A stretch of 64,000 bases of DNA from an uncultured bacterium. GTDB lineage: Bacteria; Acidobacteriota; HRBIN11; JAKEFK01. Below, piece after piece: positions 1,374-58,746 of the stretch. A model generated the notes under the pieces. That model worked only from the letters and a program-made list of their open reading frames with translations, was not told the DNA's origin and did no database searches. The stretch covers positions 2,699,484 through 2,763,483 of the forward strand of contig CAWINI010000004.1 of the NCBI GenBank assembly GCA_963837395.1, read 5' to 3'. Both the position numbers and the translations under genes were made by a program. Positions within the stretch are counted from its first letter, which is position 1. Each line of letters opens with the position of its first letter.

Positions 1374-4229
1374 TTATTCCTCGAATAGTTGCGCTGAATT
1401 GTCTTCAATAATGGCGTGTAATGATTTTTCGGTTCCAGCTGAAAAATTAATCCTGGCAGTTTTTTCTCTTCCTAACTTTTCCCAGAACACTCGAATCTGT
1501 TTTACTCCTGCTTGAACTGGATACTTGAAAATTGGCGCGGTATCGATCTGTTCTCCTTCAACAAATAGTGTGCAATTACTGGGTTGTGCCGTTAATGTTA
1601 ATTGAGCCATCGGCGGAACCTTTATAATGGTCGATTCACCAGTCTTAATTTCGACACGTTCAGTTTGACGGATATAAGCTTCTTGAATCGAATTGCTAAC
1701 GATCATCACCTGGTAGCTTCCAGGTTTTAAACTCGATGAATCTTTTTCATCGGAGTTGAACAGAAGTGTTTTGTTTAGAAAAACTGAAATCGCAAAGTCT
1801 CCTTGATAAACCAGAGTACCTGGTTTTGCAGGAATCGCAGTTAGATCGAGCGCCGGTAAGTCTGATGTTTCTTCATTGATGATGAAAGTTGCAGGCTGAT
1901 AGTCTGCCATCTTCAATTCAAGTTGATGCGTTTGTCCGGCATGCAATTCCAAATCTGCCGGAGTTTTTAATCCTGTATCTTGTTGATCAATAAAAATAGA
2001 AGCACCATCAGGATTACTGCGAACAGTGAAATGTCGCAGCTCAGGCTGCTGCACAACTGTGTCCTGGGTCTGCAAATTTGAATTTGGTGCATCACTTTCA
2101 AACGAAGAATTTGGTGGCGGATCCGCAATTATTTGAGTTTGTGCCGGAGAAGTCTGTGCAGGGGATTGATTTTTATTTGTTGGAATTTGCTGTTGAACAA
2201 TTAACGGCGGTTGTTTATAGATCAGAAAATAATATGTGGCTGCAGCTCCGCCTAGAATCAAAAAAAATAAAGCCGCAATCCAACCTGCATAGCTTTTTGA
2301 TTCAGGTTCAACATACTCCTCAATATGTTCATCTTCAGCCGAAACCGGTACGTACATTGGTGCGGTTGGAGCAGGACGGATCGGTTGATCAAACGCAGAA
2401 AGAAATTCTTGCGTGTTCTGAAAACGTTTTGATGGATCTTTTTCCAGTGCTCTCAAAATGATTGACTCCAGTTGCGGACCAACGTGACAAAATTGCGATG
2501 GCCGCGGCGGAGGAGTATGCAGATGCGCATACATCATGCTGGCCGGAGTCCTGGCATCAAATGGAGCGCGTCCGGTCACCATTTCATAAAGAATGATTCC
2601 GGCTGAATACAAGTCGGCTCTGTGATCCGAACCTTGTTCCTTGAATTGTTCCGGTGCCATATAACGCGGAGTGCCTACCATCATTCCGGTTTGAGTTAAG
2701 TGTCCTGCTTCAGCAGAAAACGAAATGCCGAAATCCATCATCATTGCACGTCCGGTTCGATCGATCATGATGTTTTGCGGTTTCAAATCTCGATGAATGA
2801 TTCCTTGACTGTGCGCTGCACCCAGCGCATTTAATACCTGCCGCATAATTTCAATTGTTTGTTGTTCAGGCAGCGACCCCTGGAGATGAAGTATTTCGGA
2901 AAGCGTTTGCCCTTCGACGAATTCCATGGACACATAATGAACGCCGCCGGCTTCACCGATATCATATAGACGGCAAACATTTGGATGCGCGACTTTACGC
3001 GCCAAAATTACTTCCCGTTTCAAACGATTTAGATTCGTTTCATTACTGACCAGTTCGCGGTTCAAGGTTTTGATCGCAACTGAAATATCAAGCATTCGAT
3101 CTGTCGCTTTAAATACTGTTCCCATTCCGCCTTCGCCGATGCGTTTCTCAATCAAATACCGGTTCGCAAAAAATGAACCGGGTGTTGGTGAAGCCGGAGC
3201 AGTCCAGGCTGGCGAATGCACGGTTGGTGTCAATGAACTTTCGATCTTATTCAAATGATCAATTACTTCCTTCATTGATGCATGACGATTCTCACGTAAT
3301 TTCGCCATGGCCCTGGCAACGAAGTAATCCAATTCCGGTGGAAAAGGACCACAATCCGCATGCGATGACAATGGCCGCGCATTCTCATTCAGATGTTTGT
3401 ACATGAAACCCTGCGGCGTATTGGATGTAAAAGGCAGCCTTCCGGTCAGCATGTGATACAAAGTGACACCAAGCGAATAGATGTCTGCGCGCTGATCGAT
3501 ATCTTCGTCTTCGCTAAGCTGGCCACAAAGCTCAGGACTTACATATTCCAACTTTCCGATAAACATATTTGTGCGCGTAAATCGTTGAGTTTCTTTTGCT
3601 GTAGGACGCGCAATTCCGAAATCGATAACTTTTGTAGTTTCCACTCCTGATTCTGTTTGTACTAAAAACAAATTGTCTGGTGAAAGATCGCGATGGATAA
3701 TCCCTTTTTGATGTGCTGCCTCAAGCCCCATCGCAGCTTCGCGGATAATTCGTAAGGCATGCTGGATTGGAATATGCTGAATTCTTTGAATCCGTTGCAA
3801 CGCGGTTTCACCCCGCAGAAATTCCAGCACCATAAAAAATTGATTGTTTTCCAATGTACCGAATTCATAAAGTTCAACGAGATTTGGATGGCGAAGTTTC
3901 GCCAAGGTTTTTGCTTCACGAATAAATCGATTCACAAAATCTTGCGTCTCCGCAAGTTGGGTTTGAATCAGTTTAATGGCTCGTTGTTCATCTAAATAGA
4001 TGTGGCGCGCTCGATAGACCGCTCCCATTCCACCGCGGCCGATCCTTTCGAGAATTTCGTATTCACGAATACGCGTGCCAATCCACTGATCAGTAGGGGA
4101 CTCCACAATTAGCTCCTGATTGAGGCTATTATATTGCACGAAATGAAAGTTCTCCTCCTTATCAAGGGGGAGATGAAGAGGGGGTTGGAATATTTTCAAT
4201 TTCCAACCACCCCTTGCCCCCTCCTTCAT
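1374..4229 (-). CDS. transmembrane Ser/Thr protein kinase with two tandem catalytic domains and C-terminal PEGA domains
   Basis: Domain 1: GRGGMGAVY, AIK, HRDLSPDN, DFGIAR, SPE. Domain 2: GEGGMGTVF, VAIKTL, HRDLKPQN, DFG, APE. All catalytic motifs intact. One TM helix (WIAALFFLILGGAAATYYFLIY), an S/T/P/Q linker and two PEGA-like domains. The long N-terminal extension of this ORF is the reverse translation of intergenic hairpins; a likelier start is GTG at 4106 with upstream CAGGAG. Confidence 0.85.
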   Translation of the reverse strand: MKEGARGGWKLKIFQPPLHLPLDKEENFHFVQYNSLNQELIVESPTDQWIGTRIREYEILERIGRGGMGAVYRARHIYLDEQRAIKLIQTQLAETQDFVNRFIREAKTLAKLRHPNLVELYEFGTLENNQFFMVLEFLRGETALQRIQRIQHIPIQHALRIIREAAMGLEAAHQKGIIHRDLSPDNLFLVQTESGVETTKVIDFGIARPTAKETQRFTRTNMFIGKLEYVSPELCGQLSEDEDIDQRADIYSLGVTLYHMLTGRLPFTSNTPQGFMYKHLNENARPLSSHADCGPFPPELDYFVARAMAKLRENRHASMKEVIDHLNKIESSLTPTVHSPAWTAPASPTPGSFFANRYLIEKRIGEGGMGTVFKATDRMLDISVAIKTLNRELVSNETNLNRLKREVILARKVAHPNVCRLYDIGEAGGVHYVSMEFVEGQTLSEILHLQGSLPEQQTIEIMRQVLNALGAAHSQGIIHRDLKPQNIMIDRTGRAMMMDFGISFSAEAGHLTQTGMMVGTPRYMAPEQFKEQGSDHRADLYSAGIILYEMVTGRAPFDARTPASMMYAHLHTPPPRPSQFCHVGPQLESIILRALEKDPSKRFQNTQEFLSAFDQPIRPAPTAPMYVPVSAEDEHIEEYVEPESKSYAGWIAALFFLILGGAAATYYFLIYKQPPLIVQQQIPTNKNQSPAQTSPAQTQIIADPPPNSSFESDAPNSNLQTQDTVVQQPELRHFTVRSNPDGASIFIDQQDTGLKTPADLELHAGQTHQLELKMADYQPATFIINEETSDLPALDLTAIPAKPGTLVYQGDFAISVFLNKTLLFNSDEKDSSSLKPGSYQVMIVSNSIQEAYIRQTERVEIKTGESTIIKVPPMAQLTLTAQPSNCTLFVEGEQIDTAPIFKYPVQAGVKQIRVFWEKLGREKTARINFSAGTEKSLHAIIEDNSAQLFEE

Positions 4230-20974: not shown

Positions 20975-21712
20975 ATGTCCATCAAAAACTTTTTTCTATC
21001 AATCTTCAGGTTCTTTTTTCATGTCATCGGTTTGATGATTGTTGGTGCACTCAGCACGTTCATCGCTTTGCGTTTTTTTACAACAGGTGATGAAGTGGTT
21101 GTTCCGAATTTAAAAGGCAAGGCACCGGTGGAGGCAATCAAACTGTTAACAGATAAAGGACTGCAGCTAAAAATTTTGCCACAAAAAAGATTTGATAAAG
21201 AAATTCCGGCAGAGCATATCATTTCGCAAGAACCCGTTGCCGATACCCGCATCAAAACCGGACGAAGTGTGGAAGTGTATATGAGCCTTGGCCCTGAAAA
21301 AATTGTTGTACCTGATCTGACCGGACAAACCACGCGCGTTGCGACGTTGACTCTGGATCAATATAAACTTTCACCAGGAAAAATCGTTTACGTCACATCT
21401 CCTGGTGCTGAATCCGATGCAGTATTAGCGCAATTTCCTTTGCCCGGAACTGTCGTTACTGATGTTCGCGTTGTAAATATTTTGGCGAACAACAGTATGT
21501 ATGTAAATCCAAGATCTTTTGTTATGCCTGATGTAATTGGAAAACCGGTTGATGAAGTAAACTCCTTTTTCAAGGATGCCGGGCTTCGTGTTAGTTCCTC
21601 GCAACCGATTGATTATCCTGGAATCGCTCCCGGAACTGTTGTAAAGCAATCTCCACCTGCTGGATACAAAGTCAGCAGCAATACTCCAATCAGTTTATAC
21701 TTTAGCAAGTAA
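20975..21712 (+). CDS. membrane-anchored protein with three PASTA domains and no kinase or PBP domain
   Basis: One N-terminal TM helix, then three repeats of the PASTA pattern (VVVPNLKGKAPVEAIKLL..., IVVPDLTGQTTRVATLTL..., FVMPDVIGKPVDEVNSFF...). Confidence 0.8.
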   Translation: MSIKNFFLSIFRFFFHVIGLMIVGALSTFIALRFFTTGDEVVVPNLKGKAPVEAIKLLTDKGLQLKILPQKRFDKEIPAEHIISQEPVADTRIKTGRSVEVYMSLGPEKIVVPDLTGQTTRVATLTLDQYKLSPGKIVYVTSPGAESDAVLAQFPLPGTVVTDVRVVNILANNSMYVNPRSFVMPDVIGKPVDEVNSFFKDAGLRVSSSQPIDYPGIAPGTVVKQSPPAGYKVSSNTPISLYFSK

Positions 21713-21716
21713 AGCT

Positions 21717-22388
21717 ATGGAAAAACGGATTGCACCATCGATTCTGTCAGCAGATTTTGCGCACCTTGCCGATCAAATAGAAATGGTTGAATCAGCAGGC
21801 GCAGACATGATCCATGTGGATGTGATGGATGGACATTTCGTGCCAAACATTACAATTGGTCCGGTTGTTGTTGAATGGATCCGTAAAGCCACGAATTTGC
21901 CATTAGATGTGCATCTGATGATCGAAAATTCAGATCGCTACATTGAAGCATTTGTAAAAGCTGGTGCGAATTTAATTTCAGTACATTTTGAAGCGAACAC
22001 GCATCTAAATCGCACTCTTCAACTGATCCATTCCTTAAACTGCAAGGCAGGTGTGGTGCTGAATCCAAGTAGTCCGGTAGATTGGCTTAGCGATTCGCTA
22101 TCTTACTTAGATTTCGTACTTCTAATGAGTGTTAATCCTGGTTTTGGCGGACAAAAATTTTTGCCGCATGTATTGCGCAAAGTGCAATATCTCCGATCGA
22201 TGCGAAGTGATTTGGGACAACATTTTGCAATCGAGATCGATGGCGGAATTGGACTGAATAATTTGAAGCAAGCTTTCGATGCAGGCTCAGATTGGATTGT
22301 GGCAGGATCGGCCATTTTTCAGAGTTCGGATCCAAGAGATACAGTTAAGAAAATGAAGCAAATCGCCCAGGAGTCCGAATCGGCGTGA
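21717..22388 (+). CDS. rpe: ribulose-phosphate 3-epimerase
   Basis: SILSADFAHLADQI...MIHVDVMDGHFVPNITIGP motif; 223 aa. Confidence 0.9.
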   Translation: MEKRIAPSILSADFAHLADQIEMVESAGADMIHVDVMDGHFVPNITIGPVVVEWIRKATNLPLDVHLMIENSDRYIEAFVKAGANLISVHFEANTHLNRTLQLIHSLNCKAGVVLNPSSPVDWLSDSLSYLDFVLLMSVNPGFGGQKFLPHVLRKVQYLRSMRSDLGQHFAIEIDGGIGLNNLKQAFDAGSDWIVAGSAIFQSSDPRDTVKKMKQIAQESESA

Positions 22389-22415
22389 AATCGATTTCCA
22401 GAGTTCGAGTGCGTT

Positions 22416-22823
22416 ATGCCGAAACGGACACAAATGGGTGTCGTTTATCACAGCAATTTTCTGGTTTATTTCGAAGTTGGTCGAACCGATTATTTTCGAC
22501 AATTCGGTTTTACTTATCGTGACTTAGAAAAGGACGGCATATTCATGCCGGTTACTGAATCCTATTGCCGCTACGACCGATCCGCTTATTATGATGACGA
22601 GCTCGACATCGTCACCACTCTTGAAATGATGTCCCGCCTGAAATTGCGGTTTAACTATGATGTATTTCGGAATTCAAATGAAAAAATTGCAGAAGGCTAT
22701 ACAATGCACGTACCGGTGAATTCTTCTGGAAAACCGTGTAAAATACCTGCCGCTTATCTTGCCGCGTTTCCTGTGAAAGAAAATGCGCGGGAATCCGGCA
22801 ATCCTCAGAGAGTTGGGAACTAA
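22416..22823 (+). CDS. acyl-CoA thioesterase (4HBT/YbgC hot-dog fold)
   Basis: VVYHSNFLVYFEVGRTDYFRQ hot-dog catalytic region; 135 aa. Confidence 0.8.
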   Translation: MPKRTQMGVVYHSNFLVYFEVGRTDYFRQFGFTYRDLEKDGIFMPVTESYCRYDRSAYYDDELDIVTTLEMMSRLKLRFNYDVFRNSNEKIAEGYTMHVPVNSSGKPCKIPAAYLAAFPVKENARESGNPQRVGN

Positions 22824-23880: not shown

Positions 23881-24696
23881 ATGAGTAAGAAATATTTGAT
23901 AATTCTAGCTGCACTGTTACTGGTTTTGGGATGCGGAGGGCCAAAGCACGCTGAGTTGGATCCAAACAAGCAAAACGATAAAGAATTGTACGAAACTGGC
24001 GAACGTGAAATGAAAGATCAAAATTATGATAAAGCGCGAGCCGCATTCAAACTCGTATTCGATAATTTTCCGAAAAGTGATTATCGCATTCTTGCTAAGT
24101 TGAATTACGCAGAAAGTTTTTACAAAGATGGAGGCGAAGCCAATTACATTCTTGCTATTCAGGAATATCAAGATTTCATTACATTGTTTCCCTTCAGTCC
24201 AAAAGCTGCGTATGCGCAATATCAAATTGGCGCTTGTTATTATCAGATGATGGAAAAGCCGGATCGTGATCAAACCAATACTAGAAAAGCCCTGGATGAA
24301 TTTCGTAAGGTGATCGATGGTTATCCGAATGGCGAATATTACAAGTCGGCATATGACCGATTAATAGAATGTTATCAAAAGCTTGCCGAACACGAATTTC
24401 TGATTGCTCGTTATTATAATCGCACCGGGAAACATATTGCGGCTGTAGAACGGTTGAAAGAATTACTTCAAAAATATCCGGAGAGTGTGCATACGGCTGA
24501 ACAGTATTATTATCTAGCTCATTCGTTGGAAGAACTTTCTCAAGGTCCGGAAAGCTGTGTTTACTATAGTAAGATCGTAGAAAAGTGGCCTGATTCAGAA
24601 TATTCTTCAAATGCACGTGAAGGCGCGAGCCGTGTTTGTAGCGGCGAAGCGCAAACCCAAACGCAAACTCAAACCCAAACGCAACCTTCAAATTAG
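23881..24696 (+). CDS. bamD: outer-membrane protein assembly lipoprotein BamD-like (TPR)
   Basis: Lipobox LVLGC; TPR-like repeats of BamD/YfiO type; C-terminal (TQ)6 tail. Confidence 0.7.
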   Translation: MSKKYLIILAALLLVLGCGGPKHAELDPNKQNDKELYETGEREMKDQNYDKARAAFKLVFDNFPKSDYRILAKLNYAESFYKDGGEANYILAIQEYQDFITLFPFSPKAAYAQYQIGACYYQMMEKPDRDQTNTRKALDEFRKVIDGYPNGEYYKSAYDRLIECYQKLAEHEFLIARYYNRTGKHIAAVERLKELLQKYPESVHTAEQYYYLAHSLEELSQGPESCVYYSKIVEKWPDSEYSSNAREGASRVCSGEAQTQTQTQTQTQPSN

Positions 24697-24861
24697 CTAT
24701 GTTTACCGTCTTTAGCGACGCTAAAGTGTCGTCTTATTGCTACAAGTATCGCTTGACAAGTGTAATACTTCTTGTGATAGTGTTATTCGATGCGAACCTC
24801 AAATGATTGAGGTTTGTGTCAAAATGGAATTAGTCAACGCATTCAGACAAGGGAGCGGAAA

Positions 24862-26112
24862 ATGACGAAAGCCTGGCTAAAACTTTTGTTTGGCTTTATG
24901 GCTTGCTTTTTCCTCATCAGCTATGGCACCTGCATTGCGCAGACAGAAGGGGATACTCAAACTCAGGGAACTCAGCAGGTGGAACCACAAGCAACTCAAG
25001 AGGAGACTCAGTCGGCGCAGCAACCCAGCACAGAGGCAAGCCCGCAACCAAAATCCGGTGAACTTCCACCTCCGCTTGAAGCGGAAATGGTGGTCGCCGA
25101 ACATTGGTCCAAAAACCCATTTCCACGCACCGTCGCTGCAGGCGCGCGTGTACATATCGTAGAACGTGGCGATACTTTATGGGACTTAGCGCAACGTTAC
25201 TACCAAAATCCATTTTTGTGGCCTCAAATCTGGGACGCAAATAAATATATTCCTAATGCTCATTGGATTTACCCTGGTGATCCGGTGATCATTCCACCAT
25301 TGACTCCGATCAGCGAACAAATGATCGCTCAGGAAGCACAACCTCCTGGACCGGAAGGAGAAGTTCCTGGTGGACCTGGAGGGGGTGCGCCCGGTGAAAA
25401 ACTTTATCCAATTGCACTCGATGTTGATTTATATTGCAGTGGCTTGATTGTCCCTGACACCGGTGGTTGGAGAGTTAAAATCATTGGCAATGAAGAAAAT
25501 AATTACAAAGTCGCACTATCGACTTTTGATATTGTTTATTTGAATCAAGGCGAAGCAGATGGTATCTCGCCCGGAGACGAATTTACAATCCTTCAGCACG
25601 TTCGCAAAATATTTCATCCGATAACTGGCGAATCTCTTGGTGACTATATAGTCCAAACAGGAAGACTCAAAGTTGTAGCAACACAGGAAAAAACTTCCAC
25701 TGCGCAAATTACATACGCCTGTGATGCGACTTTAGTTGGAGATTATTTAGTACCATTTGAGCCCAAAGAAGTTCCAAATCTCACCGATCTTCCTCCAGTA
25801 GATCGTTTCAGTTTGGAAAGGCCGAATCAGAAGGGATACGTCGTATTTGCAAAAGATGATCTCACCTCACTTGGTGATAACAACGAAGTGCAGATCGATG
25901 TTGGAGCTGCTGATGGTATTACAGTTGGAACACGCTTGATTGTTTACAGAAATCAAACTTCAGGCTATGAAAATACCGGTTTTGAACGGGACATTCCAAG
26001 ACGTGTTCTGGGTGAGATGGTAGTATTTTCCGTGCAAGACTCTACAGCTACTGGTCGGATCATACAGATGTACGACTTCGTCATGCAAGGAGATATGGTA
26101 GAGGTACGTTAG
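24862..26112 (+). CDS. secreted LysM-domain protein with two C-terminal beta-rich repeats
   Basis: Signal peptide; Q/T/E-rich linker; LysM (HIVERGDTLWDLAQRYY...PGDPVIIPP); start placed at ATG 24862 (GGGAG-N6-ATG) rather than the ORF-track start at 24814. Confidence 0.8.
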   Translation: MTKAWLKLLFGFMACFFLISYGTCIAQTEGDTQTQGTQQVEPQATQEETQSAQQPSTEASPQPKSGELPPPLEAEMVVAEHWSKNPFPRTVAAGARVHIVERGDTLWDLAQRYYQNPFLWPQIWDANKYIPNAHWIYPGDPVIIPPLTPISEQMIAQEAQPPGPEGEVPGGPGGGAPGEKLYPIALDVDLYCSGLIVPDTGGWRVKIIGNEENNYKVALSTFDIVYLNQGEADGISPGDEFTILQHVRKIFHPITGESLGDYIVQTGRLKVVATQEKTSTAQITYACDATLVGDYLVPFEPKEVPNLTDLPPVDRFSLERPNQKGYVVFAKDDLTSLGDNNEVQIDVGAADGITVGTRLIVYRNQTSGYENTGFERDIPRRVLGEMVVFSVQDSTATGRIIQMYDFVMQGDMVEVR

Positions 26113-26136
26113 CATTTTTCGTGCTGTAATTCCTTA

Positions 26137-26172
26137 AACGGGCGGGCAAAAACACCCGCCCGTTTGTTTTTG
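26137..26172 (+). terminator. rho-independent terminator after the LysM gene
   Basis: AAACGGGCGGG-caaaaaca-CCCGCCCGTTT followed by GTTTTT. Confidence 0.75.
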
Positions 26173-26249
26173 GTGAATTTCCCTGTGAACCTTTGACGAG
26201 CATCTGAGCCATATGTTATTCTCAAGTCCATTGAATCGAGGGGTCTTTT

Positions 26250-28353
26250 ATGTCCACGTATGAAAAGCTTGGGGGTTATTTACTCTTCGAGAAACTAAGC
26301 GAGGACAAATTTTCAAATGACTTTCTTGCCGGGCAAATCTCAGGCTCTCAAATTCAGCAGATCTGCATCCTCAAACGTTTTGATCCTGCACTTGCAATAC
26401 TTCCCGATTTTATTCAGAACTTAAATCAAGAATACGAAGCAGTTAAAACTCTTTCTAATCCAAACATCATCAAACCGATATCTTTACTTCAGGATAAAAA
26501 AGAATACGCTGCAGTTTTCGATTTTGTGGAAGGAAAGACGCTACGAACTGTTTTAACAAAGTGCGGACAGGATGGATATCCATTTACCGTAGATCATGCT
26601 CTGCTTGTTGCCAGCCGGTTATGCACAGCCTTGGAATACCTTCATTCCAAGAAATTTAACGATCAGCGTTTGATGCATGGTTATGTTTCACCAGAAACAA
26701 TACTCGTAACTTATGATGGCGAAATTCGCCTTCAATATTTAGGCCTTGCACATGCTTTACTGAAATTTTCCGCAGGGAAAGAAAAATTATTTCACGATTA
26801 CAAAAGTTATCTATCTCCCGAAGTGATTGAAAATGAGAAATGGGGCCGGCCCAGTGATACTTATGGAGCGGGATTGGTTTTATATGAAATGCTCACCGGC
26901 GAAGTGTTAGATCGAACGCTGGATTTGGATGACACAATTGAAAAAGCTTTGATGAATTCAAATTCCGGTGATAAAGAACCCTTGCCTGATGATTTAAAAA
27001 AGCTTTTACGTCAAGCGCTTGCACCCGAAGCTCCATCAAGATTTTCTTCCATTGCTGATATGCGGAAAGCTTTGGATATGTTGTTGTTCTCAAGCGAATT
27101 TTCACCGACTACTTTTAATCTTGCATTTTTTATGCATTCCGTTTTTCGCGAAAATATTGATGAAGAATCAAAGAAAATTGCACTGTACAAGAAGACTGAT
27201 TTTTCAGCACACTTAAAAGAAGAGCCGCTACCTCCGGGGCCGGTTCCTGCAGCTCCAATCAAAAAAACCGTACCAGTTGGTGCAACAGTTGCAACGCAAA
27301 TTGTTACTCAATATGTTCCACAACCAGCTCCAGTCCATCATGTCGAACGCGAGCATCGTGCGCCTGCGCCTATGCATCAGCCAGTTTCAAAACAAGAGAT
27401 GTTTGAAACACCGGAGGAGAAGGAAAAATCAAAAGTTCCACTTCTTGCAGGTGCGTTATTAATTGTCGCTGTAGTCGCAGCAATCATTTACTTCTTTAGT
27501 TTGAAATCTACAAAAATTACAACAGCTCAAATTCCGCAGCAACTTCCGTCGCAAGTATTAACACCAGATCAAATCAAGGCGCAGGAAGCAGAACGAAAAC
27601 ATTTGGAAGAAGAAGCCATCAAAGCTCAAGAAGAAGCGCGGAAAAAAGATGAAGAGTTAAAGGCTTTGCAAGCAAAACTGGATGCACTTGTAAAAGCGCA
27701 ACAAGACCAAGCGAAGAAAAAGGTAGAAGATCTGACTGAAAAGCCGCCGAAGGTAGATCCGGCGGCAATCCGCAAGCTACAACTGGAAGCAAAAAAGTTG
27801 GAAGAAGAAAAGAAGCAGCAACAAGCATTGGCTGAACAAAAGTTAAAAGAGGCTCAATCAACGCCTTCCGCAGTTCAACCGGCTGCAAATGACACTACTG
27901 AGACGCCTGTAAACACGGCTCAGGCGGGTCAAGTTGTTCCAGCTTCAAACAATATTGGTGGTGATCAAAATATTCAACCAGATGAAGTGAAGCCGATTGA
28001 AACAGAGCAGCCACAACCGGAACCTGAACCGGAAAAGCCGGCAGTGGTGGAAGGTCAGGTTGTGGGCACTGGCTCCCGATGTGGTGAAACCGGAAATTGT
28101 AAGTCGAGTCAATCCTGCATATCCACGGATGGCGCAACAAAAGAAAGTAGAAGGAACGGTGATCATCAGCGTATTAATTTCTGAACATGGAGATGTGGCC
28201 GATGTCCGTGTTCTGCGGGAGGCCGGTGGATCCAGCGGTTTGAATGAAGCAGCTATGGCTGCAGTCCGAAAATGGAAGTTTCGTCCCGCCGTCAAAGAAG
28301 GAAAGCGCGTCAAAGTTTGGATGACCTATCCTATCGTTTTTAAACTTCAGTAG
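26250..28353 (+). CDS. pseudokinase-TM-coiled-coil-Pro-rich-TonB_C fusion protein (frameshifted in this assembly at about 28075)
   Basis: N-terminal kinase fold with degenerate motifs (no GxGxxG, HGY in place of HRD, YLG in place of DFG, but ILK, SPE and DxxxxG retained); TM VPLLAGALLIVAVVAAIIYFFSL; K/E coiled coil; QPQPEPEPEKP spacer; the TonB C-terminal domain (VNPAYP...SSGL..AA..AV.KWKF.P) continues in the +1 frame from about 28078 to 28353. Confidence 0.75.
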
Positions 28354-33297: not shown

Positions 33298-34493
33298 ATG
33301 CATATTAACGATCTGTTGAAGATCGCAACGGAGAAGGGGCCTCAGATCTTCATCTTAAAGTCGGTTCGCATCCGGTATTACGTATCACCGGCGAACTGGT
33401 GCCTCAGGTTGATTTAAAGCGGTTAATGCAGGAAGACACCATAGCCATGGCTTTCAGCATTATGAATAACCGCCAGAAGCAAAAATTCAAAGATCATCTG
33501 GAGATCGATATTGCTTACAGCGTTCCAGGGCTGGGCCGTTTCCGCTGCAACATTTTTCAGCAGCGCGGAACTGTAGGTCTTGTTCTGCGCGTCATTCCTG
33601 TAAAAATTCTAACAGTTCGTGAGCTATTACTGCCACTTGTTCTGGAAAAAATTTCCATGGAACAGCGTGGTTTGATCCTTTGCACAGGAACTACCGGTTC
33701 CGGCAAATCCACAACTCTTGCCGCGCTGATCGATTACATCAACGCACATCGTAAAGCGCATATCATCACGATTGAGGATCCAATCGAATTCCTGCATCGC
33801 GATAAAAAGAGTTTGATCAATCAACGCGAAGTTGAAGTTGATACTAAAAGCTTTTCCGGCGCACTTCGATCCGCATTACGTCAAGATCCTGATGTAATTC
33901 TGGTCGGTGAAATGCGTGATTATGAAACGATTGAAACTGCTATTACCGCGGCTGAAACAGGCCATTTAGTTCTCAGCACGCTCCATACGTTGGATGCCAC
34001 TGAAACCATCAACCGTATTATTGCGGTATTTCCGCCGCATCAGCAAAAGCAAATCCGATTGCAGCTAGCTCAAGTATTGAAAGCTGTTGTTTCTTTGCGC
34101 CTTTTGCCAAAAGCGGATGGTCATGGACGTGTACCGGCAACGGAAGTTCTGGTTTCAACCGCCTTGATCCGCGACTACATTATTAACAAAGAAAAAACGC
34201 GGCATATCCCGGATGCAATTTCCCAGGGGCTTTCGCAATACGGCATGCAAACGTTTGATCAATCGCTGTATTCCTTGTTGAAGAAGAACATGATTACGTA
34301 TGAAGAAGCATTGCTGTGGGCAACGAATCCGGAAGAATTCAAATTGCGGCTGCAAGGTATTTCTTCAACGAGCGGCATGACCCAGGAACAAATCGAAGAG
34401 TTCTCTTTCCGCGGTGATACCGCCGGAAAAGATTCCGTAGATTCAGGCGGAGGAATTGGGGACGAATTCCCCATGGACGAACTCGAACGATAG
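33298..34493 (+). CDS. pilT: type IV pilus retraction ATPase PilT (frameshifted at 33336-33339 in this assembly)
   Basis: Walker A GTTGSGKST and the PilT C-terminal region. The N-terminal 13 codons (MHINDLLKIATEK, GGAGG RBS) are in another frame and rejoin the main ORF (33399..) after a one-base deletion in a G4 run, restoring ASDLHLKVGSHPVLRITGE. Confidence 0.8.
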
Positions 34494-37764: not shown

Positions 37765-38475
37765 ATGCTCACAGCATTTCGAAAGCTGGCAGTGCTGACT
37801 TTGTTAATCTGGGCCGGAACTGCTTGCGCGAATTCTGTTCTTTGGAAATTAGATGACAAAGGACGGAAAGTCTTCTACAACAACCCGTCAAAAACAAGAC
37901 TAAAGCTGACCGATTCTGGCGAAGTTTGGCTTGGATATTCCAACAGAGTTGAAGAATACTCCGAGCTGATCAATACGATTTCTCAACGTCATGGCGTAGA
38001 TCCTGAGCTGGTAAAAGCAGTCATTCAAGTTGAATCGAACTACAATGATCGTGCTGTGTCGCATAAAGGCGCATGCGGGTTAATGCAGTTGATGCCGGCA
38101 ACAGCAGCCAGATATGGAGTTCAATCCATATTTGAACCAGCTCAAAACATCGATGGTGGCGTTCGTTATTTAAGAGACCTTCTTGAATTGTTTAACAGTG
38201 ATGTCCGGCTTAGCGTTGCTGCCTATAACGCGGGTGAAAATCGCGTTCAGCGTATCAATGACATTCCGGACTTTATCGAAACCCAAAACTATGTAAGAAA
38301 AGTAATGGCTCTCTATCGTGGTGATATGAAATATACGCCGTACGGTGGTGGCACCGCGCGGATTAGAAACGTAACTTACTACAAGTTCGTTGATAGCAAA
38401 GGTGTCACCCATTATTCGGCGTCGCCTGTTGCTTTCCCCAATGCCACAAAAGTGAGCTTCTCCTATTCATGGTAA
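37765..38475 (+). CDS. lytic transglycosylase (SLT domain) with signal peptide
   Basis: VIQVESNYNDRAVSHKGACGLMQLMPATA...AAYNAGENRV family-1 lytic transglycosylase motifs. Confidence 0.8.
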   Translation: MLTAFRKLAVLTLLIWAGTACANSVLWKLDDKGRKVFYNNPSKTRLKLTDSGEVWLGYSNRVEEYSELINTISQRHGVDPELVKAVIQVESNYNDRAVSHKGACGLMQLMPATAARYGVQSIFEPAQNIDGGVRYLRDLLELFNSDVRLSVAAYNAGENRVQRINDIPDFIETQNYVRKVMALYRGDMKYTPYGGGTARIRNVTYYKFVDSKGVTHYSASPVAFPNATKVSFSYSW

Positions 38476-40682: not shown

Positions 40683-42083
40683 ATGAAGAAGTATTTTCTA
40701 CTGTTATTCCTTCTAATTTTGTCGAAATCTTCTTCCGCCCAAGAGACGGTTTTTCCAAATCCTGCCAGATTCCCAATGCCTGAAGCTTACAAATCCAACG
40801 TAGATTTCTGGATGCGCGTTTACGGTGAATGGGAGGATGACAAGCTGGTGATTCATGATTCCAAAAACATGAACATCATTTTTGAAATCCAGGATATGCC
40901 TGATGAAAATAGCCTGTTATGGTCCGCTGCACGCGCTGGAATAAGCAAGCGTGTCGATTATTTCAAATCTATCTTGCGACAGCTTCAGTCCGATCCCGCC
41001 AATGCGGAGCTTTCCGATGATCATCGAAAAGTTTTTGCACTGTACAAAAATATTTATGACCCTGAAAAATTCAGTAAAGCTGCTGAAAATATTCGCGTGC
41101 AACAAGGAATCAAAGATCGTTTTGAGCAGGGTTTATCGCGCATGCATTTATATTTGGATGAAATCAAGAAAGCACTTCGCGAAGAAGGCGTGCCGGAAGA
41201 AATTGCCTACCTTCCGTTGGTTGAATCTTCATTTAACAATCAGTCACTTTCAAAAACGCGTGCTGCAGGAATCTGGCAATTCATGCCCGCAACTGCACGA
41301 ACTTATGCTATGAAAGTAAATTCAGATATTGATGAACGATTAGATCCGTATGTGGCAACGCGTGCGGCTGCGCGTTATCTAAACAGAAGTTATCAGATGT
41401 TTGGAAACTGGCCAGTTGCAATTATGTCTTACAATCACGGCCAGCAAGGAATCCGAAATGCGATAAATTCATTAGGTACCAGCGATTTCATAACGATAGT
41501 TACACGGTATGACGGAAGATACTTTGGTTTTGCATCAAGAAATTTTTATGCGGAATTCCTTGCAGCTTGCAAAGTGATGGATCAGGCAGACAAGTATTTC
41601 AAGAAAATTGATTACGCAAAAGCTCAATCACATGATTCCATCACGCTTTCCAGATCACTGTATGCCTCTTCATTAATTGATCATTCTTCAATAACACGCG
41701 AAGAACTTCGAACCCTGAATCCAGCATTACAATCCAGTGTAATTTTTTCAAAAAGACCGATCCCTGCCGGCTATGAACTCAGGTTGCCAGCAGGACGTTA
41801 CAAAGACCTGATTTCCTTCATCGCCCAGGTTCGCGGAGCTGAACCACAACAAACCACGCAACCAAAACTAGCTGCTGCGAAAATTACACCGGCAACAAAC
41901 AAAGTTGCGAAAAGCACCCCCCCAGGCTCAAAATGTTCGCAATCTTATGTCGTTCGGAAAGGTGATACGTTGTTTTCTATTTCCAGGAGATTTTCTTCCA
42001 GTATCGCAGAAATCCAAAATGCCAACGGTCTGAATCATAGCCGTATTATGCCAGGACAAAAGCTGCGCATTCCAATCTGCTAA
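40683..42083 (+). CDS. mltD: membrane-bound lytic murein transglycosylase D-like (SLT catalytic domain plus C-terminal LysM)
   Basis: Signal peptide; LPLVESSFNNQSLSKTRAAGIWQFMPATAR...SYNHG catalytic region; C-terminal LysM (YVVRKGDTLFSISRRF...GQKLRIP). Confidence 0.8.
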   Translation: MKKYFLLLFLLILSKSSSAQETVFPNPARFPMPEAYKSNVDFWMRVYGEWEDDKLVIHDSKNMNIIFEIQDMPDENSLLWSAARAGISKRVDYFKSILRQLQSDPANAELSDDHRKVFALYKNIYDPEKFSKAAENIRVQQGIKDRFEQGLSRMHLYLDEIKKALREEGVPEEIAYLPLVESSFNNQSLSKTRAAGIWQFMPATARTYAMKVNSDIDERLDPYVATRAAARYLNRSYQMFGNWPVAIMSYNHGQQGIRNAINSLGTSDFITIVTRYDGRYFGFASRNFYAEFLAACKVMDQADKYFKKIDYAKAQSHDSITLSRSLYASSLIDHSSITREELRTLNPALQSSVIFSKRPIPAGYELRLPAGRYKDLISFIAQVRGAEPQQTTQPKLAAAKITPATNKVAKSTPPGSKCSQSYVVRKGDTLFSISRRFSSSIAEIQNANGLNHSRIMPGQKLRIPIC

Positions 42084-52915: not shown

Positions 52916-54060
52916 CAAGATCTGAACGACTAATCGACTTCCGTTTCGTTCTGATAGTTTTTTTGATTTCCAGAATTGCTCTTGAAATTGTCGGAATTCT
53001 TTCCGCATTTTATTTTCCGCCGGCTCAAGCCGTATTCAAAATTCGTGATTTGCAATATCACACTCGCCAATCTTTGCCGCAGGAAATGTGGGCGCGTTGG
53101 GATTCTGAATGGTATCTGCTGATTGCAGATCATGGCTACGCTTCCTACGAATATTTTAAGGACGCTGGCGGCGGAAGATATTTACAACAAGACTCTTCAA
53201 AGTTTTTTCCAGCATATCCGATTGCTATTCGCACCTTAACATTCATCACTGGAAACAGTGTGCTCTCAGGCATTCTTATTTCAAATGTTTGTGCGTTGCT
53301 ATTCTTATATTTCTTTCTTCGTCTTGCTTCAAAATTCATGAGCACTGAAAATGCTGTCAATGCTGCAATTTTGTATGTTGTCTTTCCAACAAGTTTGTTT
53401 TTGAGCGCAATTTATGCTGAGGCGATGTTCCTTGCGGCAATTGTTGCTGCGTTTCTTTTCATAGAGGAACGAAAAATTTGGCCCGCCTTGCTTGCCTGTG
53501 CAATTGCAGTTCTTACACGCCCTCAGGGTGCACTTGCGCTTCCGGCGCTTGCATGGCTTGCATGGCAAAAGTTTGAGGCTCGGCGGATCATTGCAACAGC
53601 TGGAATTATTGCTGCTGTTTGTATTCCGCTTGCCGGATATTTGATGTACATCGATAACACTTTCGGATCAATGTCGTGGATTTCACAAAGCCAAACCTAC
53701 TGGCGCGGTGAAATGAAATATCCGTTTTATGCATTTGTACGGTTCTTTCAAAATACGATTGCGATTCATGGTCAACACAATTCGATGATCGATTTCACAT
53801 TTGCTATTGTTCAAATCATTGTGCTGATCTTCTCCTTCCGCAGAATTCCTTTGCCGTACACTTTGTATAGTTTGATTGTCTTATTATTCCCGTTAAGCAG
53901 CTCGCTGTTTTCTTTTTCCAGACTCTGTCTCGCGAATTTTCCCTTCTTTCTTGTATTACCTCCGCTGCTAGGGCGCTGGAATCTGCCTGTTCAAATTTTT
54001 TGCGCAATCATTCTGGCGTTTTTTATGGCAGCGTTTGCGAATTGGTTCTGGGTCGCTTAG
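52912..54060 (+). CDS. polytopic GT-C-type glycosyltransferase (PIG-V / mannosyltransferase-2-like)
   Basis: More than 8 TM helices; WDSEWYLLIADHGY...FFPAYP motif resembling PIG-V (GT76); translationally coupled to the cupin gene. Confidence 0.55.
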   Translation: MTRSERLIDFRFVLIVFLISRIALEIVGILSAFYFPPAQAVFKIRDLQYHTRQSLPQEMWARWDSEWYLLIADHGYASYEYFKDAGGGRYLQQDSSKFFPAYPIAIRTLTFITGNSVLSGILISNVCALLFLYFFLRLASKFMSTENAVNAAILYVVFPTSLFLSAIYAEAMFLAAIVAAFLFIEERKIWPALLACAIAVLTRPQGALALPALAWLAWQKFEARRIIATAGIIAAVCIPLAGYLMYIDNTFGSMSWISQSQTYWRGEMKYPFYAFVRFFQNTIAIHGQHNSMIDFTFAIVQIIVLIFSFRRIPLPYTLYSLIVLLFPLSSSLFSFSRLCLANFPFFLVLPPLLGRWNLPVQIFCAIILAFFMAAFANWFWVA

Positions 54061-55406
54061 TGGGACTCTGTGTCCTTGTGGTTGTTATAAAACGATGACC
54101 TTTTGAAAATAAATCTGTAGGTTATCTCAGACAACCGTTGTGGAACTTCCACAAATTGATTGTGCAACATTTGTGAAACTTTAAAATGACCATCGCGCGG
54201 AATCATCCCTGTTCCAACCTGGATCACCATAAAAAGATTCCAGATGATAAAAAAGATCGAAACTACCGGCACGAGTTTCGATTGCCAATGCGAATAAAGT
54301 GCAGCCAACCCAAATGTAAAAACGATTATGCAGCTAATTAAGTAACGAAGCCCGAATCCAGATCCACCTTGCCAGGTGTCGGCACAAATTACGAAATAAA
54401 ACTGTAAAAGAAACACCAGCACCAGAAGCCAAAGACTTTTTTCAGTTTTTATCAAAGAGAAAAATCCGATAATGCACAAAACGATTACCGGTGTCCAAAG
54501 AAATAAACCATGATAAGTTGAAAAAAGCACAGGAAGAAAATATTTACCGTTCCAAAAAAGTTTACCTTCTAAGTTTCCGGTTGAGTATGGATTGAGTTTA
54601 CCGTTTAGTACCCACCATATGCAGAGCTGAGGAATAAACATCAAAAAGGCAGCAGCAAGGCAAACCAGTTTCAAACGGATTTGTTTGCGATCAAACACCG
54701 GGATTACAAGAAAGAGTGCATCTTGCCATCGCACGATTGCAGCCAAACCACCAACAATGCCGATTAAGAACCATGCGGACACAGAATCTTTGTTACGAAG
54801 TTTGTACCATGTAAACACAAACAAGCTTGTTGTGAAAATGGAAGTTGCATGCGACATCGGTGGAGTAACATACATGTAGTAGACTGCGTGCGCTCCGAAC
54901 CACAGAGTCAGCACAGCCCAAAAAGAGATCCAGGCTGAAAAGAAATCGCGCAGGATTCTGTATTGCAGAAGAAATCCAAGAAAGCCGTAAAGTGCACTCG
55001 CAAAGCAAATCGCAAGCACATATGGAAATGAAAATCCATCTGCCGGATAGTTGTGTGTCGCTTTCACATACAAATCCGCAGCCGCAAAAAATGGTGCCCA
55101 CAAAATCGCACATCCAATCGGCGCATCATTGCGAGCATAGCCAGTGGAATTCAAACGATCGATGAATGCCTTTTTGAAATTCTGTTGTTTTGTTGGAGCG
55201 AGATTGTAAAGGTACTGGTATTCATTTTGAAAATTCAGATCGTGATCTTTCCAAACTGATCGAAGGTATGCGTAATATTGGATTTCATCTCCGCTGTAGA
55301 TTCGCGGGGTGAGAAGAATTAAGGAAACAACAAAGATTAAAACTAAAGCGAGGAAACCGCGTTCTGTAAATAAAAATCCGGCTGGATGGCGTTCCGCCTT
55401 TACCAT
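54057..55406 (-). CDS. GT-C glycosyltransferase of the PMT/ArnT (GT39/GT83) type
   Basis: N-terminal DE-containing loop (YSGDEIQYYAYLRSV), more than 10 TM helices; stop codon overlaps the stop of the convergent gene (TTAG at 54057-54060). Confidence 0.7.
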   Translation of the reverse strand: MVKAERHPAGFLFTERGFLALVLIFVVSLILLTPRIYSGDEIQYYAYLRSVWKDHDLNFQNEYQYLYNLAPTKQQNFKKAFIDRLNSTGYARNDAPIGCAILWAPFFAAADLYVKATHNYPADGFSFPYVLAICFASALYGFLGFLLQYRILRDFFSAWISFWAVLTLWFGAHAVYYMYVTPPMSHATSIFTTSLFVFTWYKLRNKDSVSAWFLIGIVGGLAAIVRWQDALFLVIPVFDRKQIRLKLVCLAAAFLMFIPQLCIWWVLNGKLNPYSTGNLEGKLFWNGKYFLPVLFSTYHGLFLWTPVIVLCIIGFFSLIKTEKSLWLLVLVFLLQFYFVICADTWQGGSGFGLRYLISCIIVFTFGLAALYSHWQSKLVPVVSIFFIIWNLFMVIQVGTGMIPRDGHFKVSQMLHNQFVEVPQRLSEITYRFIFKRSSFYNNHKDTESH

Positions 55407-56899
55407 TTTGTGGAATAAATCAGAACATACTCTTTGCCAAGCAACGGTACTTGATACTCAAGTTTGAACCGTGGATCGTTTGCTAGCAGTTGCTGACGTG
55501 GTTTGGTAACGATATCGGTATTAATCACGATGTAGTCAGGCTTTCGTGTTGAAAGATATTGGATCATCTTTTCATTGATTCCATCGCCTTTTTCGCGATA
55601 TTCCTTGCTTTGCAAATTCAGCCATCCCGAAAAATCTACGAGTTTGCGCTGCGCAAAATATGGAATCACTCCAATTTCTTCAGACGCGAAAGTCGATAAT
55701 GCGGGCGTATTATTTTTCAGCCATAACCCTGCTTCTTTATATGCAGGATAAGCGGTCAACTTTTGATCGCTGCGTGTTTGATCGTAATAGTAAATATTCA
55801 GTAAGAAATAGAAAAAGAAGCAGACCATCACTGTCCCGAACATAAAGAATTGCGACCATTTCGGTGATCTGAAATATTTTTCAGAAACCATTTTCAGGTA
55901 AGTCATTGAAAACAATCCAATGAACGGCAATAGATGAACGTAGTAGCGGCGATTATCAAGAAATGGTCCATAAAAAAACATACAGAAGGTTACCCAGATA
56001 AATAAAAACATGAAACGTGGAAGACGTTCTCGAATTTGTGAAAGTGCCGATATGACTGAAGCTATGATCAATATTGGAAAAAACAGAATCAAGATACCGC
56101 CAAGAAAATGTGGAATTTTCCGGAGCGCCCACGGATTTAATTTTGCACTTCCGGAACTTGGAAGCAGGGTTGAATGCGTTCCAATATAAGCAAACCAGAG
56201 AGCAGGTAAGGCAATCATTACAATTAAACGGACAAACGCGTCTTTCCAACGAAATTCATCATTTCGGTGATCGATATACAAATGATTCAAATACAACAAT
56301 CCCGCAAATAGCGCACCTTCATATCGCGTAAGGATTGCTAACCCAAGAAAGACATAAGTCCAGATTGATTGTGGATGAAACAAATATGTATACAGCGATA
56401 GCAACAGCAGGAATGTGAACAATGTGAAGTCTTGTGGTCCTGCGCTCAGAATCGCTTCGAGCGGAGATGCTGCCCACACTAACGCACTGGTGAAAGCGAT
56501 AAATGGATTCGATGTAATTCGGAAGGCAATCAAAAATAACAATACAGTTGTTGCTAAACTGAATCCAAGATTCACGAACTTCGCTGTAACGAGCGCGCTT
56601 TCTTGAAACAAAAAATGTTGAGCAGCAAGAATGAACGTTAGTAAGGGAGTTGCAGCATGCGAGATTTCGCCTGGATTAAAACTAAAGCCATTGCCTTCAG
56701 CAAGATTTCGAGCATACACATGGAACACGTAAGCGTCATCATAGGTTAAGTAGTAATCTCCAAAAAATAAGAAGTGAATGATGAGTGATAATGCGATTGT
56801 GCCTGTAATGAGCCAGCGGGATTGACTTAGAATCTCTGCTGCGGTTGCTTCCTCTTCTGGATGGAATACTGTTTTCTTAAAAGGAATAATTTCGGTCAT
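55400..56899 (-). CDS. GT-C glycosyltransferase, ArnT / 4-amino-arabinose-transferase-like (PMT_2 family)
   Basis: YDDAYVFHVYARNLAEGNGFSF loop motif typical of the ArnT/PMT_2 family; more than 10 TM helices; overlaps its neighbours by 7 nt and 4 nt. Confidence 0.75.
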   Translation of the reverse strand: MTEIIPFKKTVFHPEEEATAAEILSQSRWLITGTIALSLIIHFLFFGDYYLTYDDAYVFHVYARNLAEGNGFSFNPGEISHAATPLLTFILAAQHFLFQESALVTAKFVNLGFSLATTVLLFLIAFRITSNPFIAFTSALVWAASPLEAILSAGPQDFTLFTFLLLLSLYTYLFHPQSIWTYVFLGLAILTRYEGALFAGLLYLNHLYIDHRNDEFRWKDAFVRLIVMIALPALWFAYIGTHSTLLPSSGSAKLNPWALRKIPHFLGGILILFFPILIIASVISALSQIRERLPRFMFLFIWVTFCMFFYGPFLDNRRYYVHLLPFIGLFSMTYLKMVSEKYFRSPKWSQFFMFGTVMVCFFFYFLLNIYYYDQTRSDQKLTAYPAYKEAGLWLKNNTPALSTFASEEIGVIPYFAQRKLVDFSGWLNLQSKEYREKGDGINEKMIQYLSTRKPDYIVINTDIVTKPRQQLLANDPRFKLEYQVPLLGKEYVLIYSTKW

Positions 56900-57908: not shown

Positions 57909-58574
57909 TCAAACTCCAAATAACAGTAAGATTAGTCCGATTGCGAGCAGCACGAATATCGCACCAAAACCTAACCAAATATAGATTTCGTATCCACCTT
58001 TTTCTTTAATTTCAAGAGGAGCGGACGCACTTACTTCCTCTTCTACCTTTGGTGTTTCTGCTTTTGGTTTTGGTGGTTCAGGTGCAACTTCTTCAGCAGG
58101 TGGATCTGGAACAGCTGGCGGTGGTGGTGGTGGTGGCTCAACTGCGGCAGGTTGCGGTGGTTCTTTCTCATGTTCCGCTGTGCCCGTTCGTTGACCCAAA
58201 TTGGGTTCTGTTCCTGAAGGACGTCGCAATAATGCAGCTTCAGGCGGCATAGCCTCCATGATTGTAGCACCAGGTTCGCCCTCAAATCTGATTCGATAGG
58301 GCGCGATTGTAACAACATCCATAGCGTTTAGCGGATATTTTTCCTTGGCGACAATTGGTGCACCGTTTAACAGCGTGCCATTCGTGCTTCCGAGATCCGT
58401 TACGTAATAACTGTCGTTTTCCAAAAGGAACGCAGCGTGTGATCCTGAAATTTCCGGCCGGTTAAAATGGAGATCGTTTCCTGGTTTACGTCCGATTGTG
58501 ATTCGAGGTCGATCAAACGAAATTTCCTGGTGAGAGTTATCGATGTCAGATTCAATAATCAGCCTGGCTGGCAT
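57909..58574 (-). CDS. FHA-domain protein with a Pro-rich linker and C-terminal TM anchor
   Basis: FHA core (ITIGRKPGNDLHFNRPEISGSHAAF...SYYVTDLGSTNGTLLNG); PPPPPPPAVPDPP; C-terminal helix IWLGFGAIFVLLAIGLILLLF. Confidence 0.8.
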   Translation of the reverse strand: MPARLIIESDIDNSHQEISFDRPRITIGRKPGNDLHFNRPEISGSHAAFLLENDSYYVTDLGSTNGTLLNGAPIVAKEKYPLNAMDVVTIAPYRIRFEGEPGATIMEAMPPEAALLRRPSGTEPNLGQRTGTAEHEKEPPQPAAVEPPPPPPPAVPDPPAEEVAPEPPKPKAETPKVEEEVSASAPLEIKEKGGYEIYIWLGFGAIFVLLAIGLILLLFGV

Positions 58575-58746
58575 AGTGGGTATGGTACCGCTACATTCTT
58601 AATTCGTAAAGTAGTTCATTTTATGGTTCAACCGCGCATAAACTGATCTGGAATCTAAACAAGTTTACGATTAATATTCGTATTTCATTTCTTCTTGACT
58701 CTGGCTGACTAAATCCCAAGGTAATCATTTCACCATAAACCGAGTT

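Follow-up and report, generated by a model that had tools for sequence, protein, structure and literature searches.

A pseudokinase-TonB_C protein family of Acidobacteriota as a candidate non-catalytic scaffold across the cell envelope

TonB-type proteins are usually seen as energy transducers with a short tail, and little work has been done on the pseudokinases of bacteria. What might be the function of a protein in which both are combined? The question is raised by a gene in a stretch of 64,000 nucleotides from an uncultured bacterium of the Acidobacteriota (GenBank assembly GCA_963837395.1, contig CAWINI010000004.1, positions 2,699,484 to 2,763,483), referred to here as the window. Members of at least four classes of this dominant soil phylum, which is poorly explored genetically, share the combination as one conserved protein. 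The gene product is a bitopic inner-membrane protein consisting of a cytoplasmic dead kinase, a periplasmic stalk, a spacer, and a TonB_C domain. From its gene neighbourhoods and by analogy, and with about an even chance of being right, it is read here as a scaffold or relay that would act across the envelope without catalysis, in connection with peptidoglycan remodelling, and be encoded by an intact gene. If true, such a role would represent a new non-catalytic way for diderm bacteria to link the cytoplasm with the peptidoglycan and outer-membrane (OM) layer.

Architecture and reading frame of the gene

Two open reading frames (ORFs) jointly code for one protein of 700 amino acids (aa; about 2.1 kb) once a single base is removed. 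The parts of the gene and of the joined product are the following.

26250-28184, forward strand: first ORF, 644 aa, which runs into a stop codon
28064-28068, forward strand: extra base that breaks the frame, placed by alignment with the 94%-identical locus L084
Ending at 28353, forward strand, +1 frame: second ORF, which holds the TonB_C part
26250-27095, forward strand: cytoplasmic pseudokinase domain (residues 1-282), from Pfam Pkinase, an AlphaFold2 (AF2) predicted local distance difference test score (pLDDT) above 90, and Foldseek matches to PknB/Stk1
27102-27203, forward strand: family-signature helices SPTTFNLAFFMHSVFRENIDEE... (residues 285-318), the best-conserved segment of the protein, with AF2 helices at 288-298 and 300-315 and a block-mean pLDDT of 86-95
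27204-27437, forward strand: disordered, Pro/Val-rich cytoplasmic linker ending in a juxtamembrane K-S-K-x-P (residues 319-396), pLDDT below 50
27438-27503, forward strand: single transmembrane (TM) helix without His or other polar motif (residues 397-418), from hydropathy and the AF2 helix 402-417
27564-27857, forward strand: periplasmic helical stalk rich in K/E/A/Q (residues 439-536), with a VDPAAIxKLQxEA motif, from AF2 helices 439-493 and 504-536
27870-28061, forward strand: disordered Pro/Gln-rich spacer with QPQPEPEPEKP (residues 541-604), read directly from the sequence, pLDDT below 50
28075-28353, forward strand, +1 frame: TonB_C region (residues 609-700 of the repaired protein) and stop codon, from Pfam, PDB matches, and AF2

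Both terminal domains are matched by profile models run on the joined product. Pfam Pkinase covers residues 56-266 (E=4.3e-24, 85.8 bits against a cut-off of 31.7) and TonB_C residues 621-699 (E=4.7e-22), and the NCBIfam model of the TonB C-terminus, TIGR01352, is matched with E=4e-19. Below-threshold NCBIfam likenesses point to PASTA kinases, TolA, and the tails of myxobacterial GltG/AgmX. For residues 1-340, the AF2 model, which used 117 homologues, reached a pLDDT of 90.5 and a predicted TM-score (pTM) of 0.88. In a Foldseek search against the PDB, this N-terminal domain matched PknB, PknA, Stk1, and Nek7 at probability 1.0, with a target-normalised TM-score (TMt) of about 0.75 for PknB, Stk1, and PknA. 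The kinase-like fold claimed for the N-terminus in an initial annotation of this DNA is therefore present. Its extent was overstated; the fold stops at about residue 282, not at about 390, and is followed by helices up to about residue 315 and by a disordered stretch at 320-397.

The full-length view was taken from AF2 segments of P0001, a relative 94% identical to the window protein. In this model the kinase fold comprises residues 1-282, two additional confident helices lie within 288-315, and the linker 320-397 is disordered. The TM helix at 402-417 is followed by long helices at 439-493 and 504-536, by the disordered Pro-rich spacer at 541-584, and by a confident TonB_C fold at 600-700 (pLDDT above 92). 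Hydropathy identifies the segment around residues 397-418 as the only one of TM grade in the protein, and S394 and P397 of the juxtamembrane motif are nearly invariant. PDB sequence matches of the C-terminal domain are TonB proteins only, e.g., P. aeruginosa TonB 6i97 (E=3e-9), and TolA is absent among them; Y624 and P625 of the YP motif are invariant. The remaining elements of the predicted layout, i.e., one TM helix, a helical stalk, the QPQPEPEPEKP spacer, and a bona fide TonB C-terminal domain, were all recovered by hydropathy, AF2, Pfam, and direct reading of the sequence. Between the two stalk helices lies the motif V-D-P-A-A-I-x-K-L-Q-x-E-A-x-x-L-E (27753-27809, residues 502-520), which is kept in distant clades. 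Its D503 is invariant, and the motif may be a candidate partner-binding site.

The position of the frame break can be set by comparison. The alignment with L084 places the surplus base at 28064-28068, where the window reads GTGGGCACTGGCTCCC and L084 reads GTGGAT-CTAACTCCC. Removal of one C from the CCC run at 28075-28077 had been proposed as the repair. Deleting this base does restore the frame, but the run is shared with L084, comparison with which puts the extra base of the window about 10 bases away, and it codes for the Pro of a conserved L-x-P-D-V-V-K-P-E; the repair at the CCC run was therefore rejected in favour of 28064-28068. Removing one G of the GGG at 28064-28066 gives ...EGQVVALAPDVVKPE, which is a better fit to close relatives.

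The break is most likely an assembly error, as had been suspected, and the living organism would then carry one intact gene. TonB_C lies in the same ORF at 72 of the 85 loci to which the comparisons of domain content and gene context were extended. Twelve loci besides the window lack it; at eight of these the ORF reaches the contig end, and at three or four the ORF is short although it lies within the contig. Along the 18.7 kb that the window and L084 have in common, the window contains two other uncompensated 1-nt indels, both in unrelated conserved genes, at 22430 and 33336. Their presence within 19 kb suggests an error-prone assembly. Compared with L084, codons on the 3' side of the break differ synonymously in 10 cases and non-synonymously in 4, and those on the 5' side in 86 and 35; since the first ratio resembles the second, the TonB_C frame shows the same purifying pattern. 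A real frameshift, leaving either a recent pseudogene or a truncated pseudokinase-TM-stalk protein devoid of TonB_C, is improbable in view of these observations. The given sequence does carry the extra base, and short ORFs without TonB_C occur away from contig ends at L041, L045, L074, and perhaps L033, but most other relatives without the domain are cut by contig ends. In addition, both a signal peptide and a start context are missing from the downstream ORF as it reads, so its product would not be exportable alone. Programmed frameshifting was rejected, as relatives use one frame and do not share the extra base.

The two other indels affect the following genes. At 22385-22823, a 4HBT thioesterase gene is split by an extra base at about 22430 relative to L084 (ORFs 22385-22522 and 22416-22823). 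At 33298-34493, a PilT/PilU-family ATPase (TIGR01420, 443 bits) lacks its N-terminal ~35 residues; the truncation results from the loss of 1 nt from the G-run at 33336, and the missing start lies in ORF 33298-33417.

Pseudokinase, signature helix, and distribution of the family

The kinase domain had been described as catalytically degraded, and this was borne out by an alignment with S. aureus Stk1 and by a census of 117 homologues. In the alignment, HGYVSPET stands in place of HRDIKPQN and YLG in place of DFG; the window protein has neither the Lys nor the Asn of the catalytic loop and lacks a Gly-rich loop. The census gave the following picture.

HRD Arg: replaced by Gly in 116 of 117
HRD Asp: kept in 3 of 117
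Catalytic-loop Lys: kept in 0 of 117, with Ser, Thr, or Cys in its place
Catalytic-loop Asn: kept in 32 of 117
DFG Asp: kept in 0 of 117, with Tyr in 60 and Gly in 53
Beta3 Lys: kept in 62 of 117
Gly-rich loop: an acidic stretch in its place

Residues that keep the fold (H143, P190, E191, D203, and R264) are invariant in the same homologues. Because the catalytic residues have been lost family-wide while the fold-keeping ones are invariant, the dead state is old and under selection. As judged from these residues, the domain is a catalytically dead pseudokinase throughout the family.

Conservation is highest in the segment that directly follows the kinase fold, S-P-T-T-F-N-L-A-F-F-M-H-S-L-F-R-E (invariant hydrophobic helix PTTFNLAFFMHSLFR). 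Eight of its positions, P286, T288, F289, L291, A292, F293, F294, and R300, are invariant in 117 sequences. Residues 268-330 alone returned 163 matches at E<=1e-3 (phmmer against 1.84 billion representatives), each match standing for a cluster at 50% identity. With few exceptions, the matches are proteins 600-790 aa long in which the motif sits near residues 260-330, or pieces of such proteins, and as far as sequence searches go the signature helix is specific to the pseudokinase-TonB_C family. Other architectures were not found among the motif-only matches, with the possible exception of P0123. This 772-aa sequence has the helix at residues 65-126 and no Pfam domain; either a variant of the architecture or an error of gene calling may lie behind it. 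The one large outlier, P0261, was set aside as a repeat protein that looks like a chance match.

The protein search returned 439 matches to the joined product. Among the 120 matches listed, all combine Pkinase with TonB_C in 570-740 aa; a database check for this architecture, which had been recommended, thus found the combination already on record. Existing names among the listed matches, where there are any, are 'TonB family protein' or 'serine/threonine-protein kinase', and the first is a misleading annotation for these genes. A scan of one genome per species found relatives in at least 250 species genomes. The 80 loci kept of 250 relatives are nearly all from Acidobacteriota (Vicinamibacteria, Thermoanaerobaculia, and Holophagae), and three contigs bear other phylum labels. 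Acanthopleuribacter pedis and Sulfidibacter corallicola are cultured carriers and would offer a concrete entry point for testing. Literature searches found no published description of a kinase-TonB or pseudokinase-TonB fusion, and neither TonB nor Acidobacteria is mentioned in a review from 2025 on the pseudokinase families of bacteria (PMC12599244). The component domains are known, their combination is already listed in databases, and TonB_C proteins with cytoplasmic domains have precedent; the family itself is broad, strongly constrained, unstudied, and mis-named.

Gene neighbourhoods and possible functions

Four elements precede the gene in the window.

23881-24696, forward strand: BamD, two genes upstream and conserved in the window's clade (TIGR03302, 207 bits; synteny)
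24814-26112, forward strand: TsaP homologue with LysM and FlgT_C-like domains, the upstream neighbour (phmmer against PDB; Pfam LysM/FlgT_C; synteny)
26135-26166, forward strand: terminator-like hairpin after the tsaP-like gene, with a 12-bp stem including 8 GC pairs, then TTTTTGG
26193-26222, forward strand: promoter-like site TTGACG-18-TATTCT with TG before the second hexamer, found by consensus scan only, 28 nt 5' of the ATG at 26250

Since a terminator-like hairpin and a promoter-like site precede it, the pseudokinase-TonB_C gene in the window is probably transcribed on its own. The TsaP homologue matches M. xanthus TsaP (5e-28) and P. aeruginosa TsaP (1e-19) in the PDB by phmmer. TsaP connects the secretin PilQ with peptidoglycan (bioRxiv 10.1101/2020.05.29.123786). 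The end of bamD (24640-24696) consists of a (TQ)n repeat (QTQTQTQTQTQ) with several length indels relative to L084.

Across the 85 loci, four clade-specific contexts were recognized, in all of which the genes lie on the same strand and are closely spaced. In the window's clade (8 loci), bamD and the tsaP homologue are followed by the pseudokinase-TonB_C gene, on which a downstream SMC gene converges. In a Vicinamibacteria-type clade (about 20 loci), the gene is the last of a five-gene operon, at the usual place of pilQ, after PilM-like, PilN-like, 160-aa, and PilP-like genes. The PilM-like profile matches P. aeruginosa PilM in the PDB (1.9e-9). The PilN-like profile has a weak PDB match (0.012), PilP is the sole, weak PDB match (0.66) of the PilP-like profile, and the profile of the 160-aa gene at the PilO position has no PilO match in the PDB. 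None of these four genes has a significant Pfam match. A highly diverged pilM/N/(O)/P-like operon with the pseudokinase-TonB_C gene in place of the secretin can be seen at L085 7307-12010, and also at L002, L008, L010, L012, and others. In Thermoanaerobaculia/Holophagae (about 42 loci), ruvX and mltG precede the gene, and a CsgG/LpoB-like lipoprotein gene is often next. In the Acanthopleuribacterales type (6 loci, including Sulfidibacter corallicola and Acanthopleuribacter pedis) it is followed by slt, and at three of these six loci it is preceded by a MurF and Alr fusion and a double Ddl. These are an 835-aa fusion of a MurF-type ligase with alanine racemase and an 834-aa tandem D-Ala-D-Ala ligase, directly upstream at L035 2501-7576 (Sulfidibacter corallicola), L039, and L055.

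Because two lytic transglycosylases, a LysM protein, wall-precursor enzymes, and a wall-spanning alignment complex adjoin the gene, these contexts point to peptidoglycan and envelope machines and not to nutrient uptake. Further genes of the window are of note. Two SLT-domain lytic transglycosylases, one with LysM, are encoded 9-14 kb downstream (37765-38475 and 40683-42083), and the first resembles the Slt that adjoins the family member in other clades (4e-13). About 4.5 kb upstream, at 20975-21712, a stand-alone protein with a TM segment and three PASTA repeats but no kinase domain is conserved in the window's clade, and it matches just positions 340-563 of the Stk1/PknB PASTA-kinase model. 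Together, the PASTA-only gene and the pseudokinase gene look like a dismantled PASTA kinase.

Could the protein be a genuine TonB, energised by ExbB/ExbD and opening TonB-dependent transporters, with the pseudokinase adding regulation by a Ser/Thr-kinase/FHA network? The bona fide TonB_C domain with its YP motif, the PDB matches, all to TonB, the Pro-rich spacer, and the presence of a tandem kinase and of FHA proteins within the window would agree with this. The S-x3-H motif of TonB and TolA, known from proteobacteria, couples them to ExbB/ExbD or TolQ/TolR, but the TM helix contains no His in any of 72 members and the motif is absent. None of the 52 window ORFs tested, all of 135 aa or more, matched ExbB, ExbD, TolQ, or TolR; ExbB and ExbD, for which a search of the genome had been recommended, are likewise missing from the Pfam-annotated gene tables around five relatives, and no TonB-dependent receptor is found among the conserved neighbours. 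The kinase and FHA genes had been called nearby, but the tandem kinase is 22 kb off and the FHA genes are 30 kb off, and they are not conserved neighbours; a link to them as neighbours was rejected at this distance. As far as these features allow, a canonical TonB or proton-motive-force transducer for TonB-dependent transporters is unlikely, and the regulated version described above is rather doubtful. Slightly more credit can be given to a dedicated part of the type IVa pilus, or of a related secretin-less machine, i.e., a FimV/TonB3-like anchor linking the PilMNOP complex and TsaP to the wall or OM, but this too is unlikely. It would account for the place of the gene at the end of the pilM/N/(O)/P-like operon, in the pilQ position, at about 20 loci, and behind a true tsaP homologue at the 8 loci of the window's clade. 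A PilT-family ATPase is encoded 5 kb downstream in the window, and the TonB paralogues P. aeruginosa TonB3 and A. baumannii TonB2 have been implicated in pilus function (PMC8811193). Against this, the largest clade (about 42 loci) has mltG and ruvX and no pilus genes within 6 kb, and another has ddl, murF, and slt, so that about 48 loci show no pil or tsaP adjacency; the matches within the diverged operon are weak or lacking, and the terminator-like hairpin stands between tsaP and the gene in the window. Least probable is a TolA-like OM tether that would serve cell division and the integrity of the envelope, the pseudokinase having a regulatory part. In its favour, the long helical stalk, rich in K/E/A, is reminiscent of TolA domain II, the window's clade has BamD and SMC as neighbours, and tolA_full is weakly matched at residues 443-698 (E=1.3e-9), but the 37.8 bits obtained are under the curated cut-off of 59.45, genes for TolQ, TolR, TolB, or Pal are adjacent at no locus, TolA does not appear among the PDB matches of the C-terminal domain, and the TM helix has no His.

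According to the scaffold or relay reading, TonB_C would hold a partner in the peptidoglycan/OM layer, the stalk would span the periplasm, and the dead kinase and signature helix would dock a cytoplasmic partner, e.g., an active Hanks kinase, a PilM-like ATPase, or wall-precursor enzymes. In this way the lytic transglycosylases MltG/Slt, the type IVa pilus alignment complex, and TsaP could be coupled to the cytoplasm. Precedents are the MviN pseudokinase, GltJ, TsaP, and the TonB paralogues with a part in pilus function. The family might also represent a signalling device across the envelope that is specific to the phylum and corresponds, in diderms, to the PASTA kinases; this idea is tentative and about as probable as the pilus part. 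The PknB-derived dead kinase, locked by the invariant signature helix, would then be switched allosterically when TonB_C engages a peptidoglycan or OM partner, and could thereby control MltG/Slt, as lytic transglycosylases, and also how machines that span the wall, type IV pili for example, are inserted. Several points weigh against the scaffold or relay. The function is drawn from gene neighbourhood and analogy, and the four contexts differ from one another. In the window's clade the context is part of a long collinear block from which the hairpin separates the gene, which makes it weak alone; the PilN-like and PilP-like assignments are weak, and the gene at the PilO position is without a match. 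ExbB/ExbD could be encoded elsewhere in the genome, and the argument from the TM His is made at sequence level and drawn from proteobacterial TonB and TolA. Finally, with an assembled sequence as the only source, a genuine recent frameshift keeps a small share of the probability.

The distant signalling genes of the window can be described briefly. On the reverse strand, 1374-4229 codes for a 951-aa protein with two Pkinase domains and PEGA, followed by a protein with TPR and PEGA (340-1371). The FHA cluster, also on the reverse strand (57909-61306), comprises a one-FHA protein (57909-58574), an unannotated 325-aa protein (58747-59724), and a two-FHA protein (59717-61306). Beside it, at 54057-56899, large proteins have weak, below-threshold Pfam matches only.

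Comparison with known systems

With TonB of the ExbB-ExbD-TonB system, the family shares the TonB_C domain with its YP motif, the Pro-rich spacer, the N-in bitopic topology, and the best PDB matches. TonB proteins 'in general lack a cytoplasmic domain' (PMC8262864), whereas 396 cytoplasmic residues precede the TM helix here; the long helical stalk, the lack of S-x3-H, and the lack of exbBD or receptor genes nearby are further differences.

FimV is a bitopic envelope protein needed for type IV pilus function. The FimV/HubP hubs, P. aeruginosa TonB3, and A. baumannii TonB2 have in common with the family a bitopic layout, a periplasmic module that binds the wall or the OM, and a cytoplasmic scaffold. 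Kinship in sequence is limited to TonB_C, and the link is by gene neighbourhood only.

The PASTA kinases PknB, Stk1, and StkP provide the best sequence and fold matches of the N-terminal domain and the same layout of kinase fold, TM helix, and wall-facing module. In contrast to them, the present protein is dead and carries a stalk and TonB_C instead of PASTA repeats, which are found in the separate PASTA-only protein. The Mycobacterium MviN/MurJ pseudokinase (ActPs3 family) is likewise a degraded PknB-like fold with a C-terminal TM tether and a link to peptidoglycan. It is phosphorylated by PknB, recruits FhaA, and restrains peptidoglycan synthesis (PMC12599244). MviN is fused to a flippase, whereas the acidobacterial protein is fused to a TonB-like periplasmic module. 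Compared by published descriptions with the families ActPs1-3, GLW, CP1, DYD, and DLHK, it reads H-G-x at HRD and neither GLW nor another of the named motifs, and it belongs to Acidobacteria, whereas the described pseudokinase families are actinobacterial, proteobacterial, or cyanobacterial (PMC12599244).

Myxococcus GltJ/GltG share with the family a periplasmic TonB_C domain, a single TM helix, and a sizeable cytoplasmic interaction region. GltJ has a ZnR-linker-GYF region in the cytoplasm that serves as a regulatory switch for MglA/AglZ (PMC11135422). In place of this region there is a kinase fold here; Pfam found no ZnR or GYF domain in the protein, and the GltG/AgmX models stayed below their cut-offs (gliding_GltG, 20.4 bits against 650; myxo_SS_tail, 33.5 against 40). 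Phylum and gene context also differ. Considered as an analogy of layout and interaction region, GltJ is the closest functional counterpart of the acidobacterial pseudokinase-TonB_C proteins.

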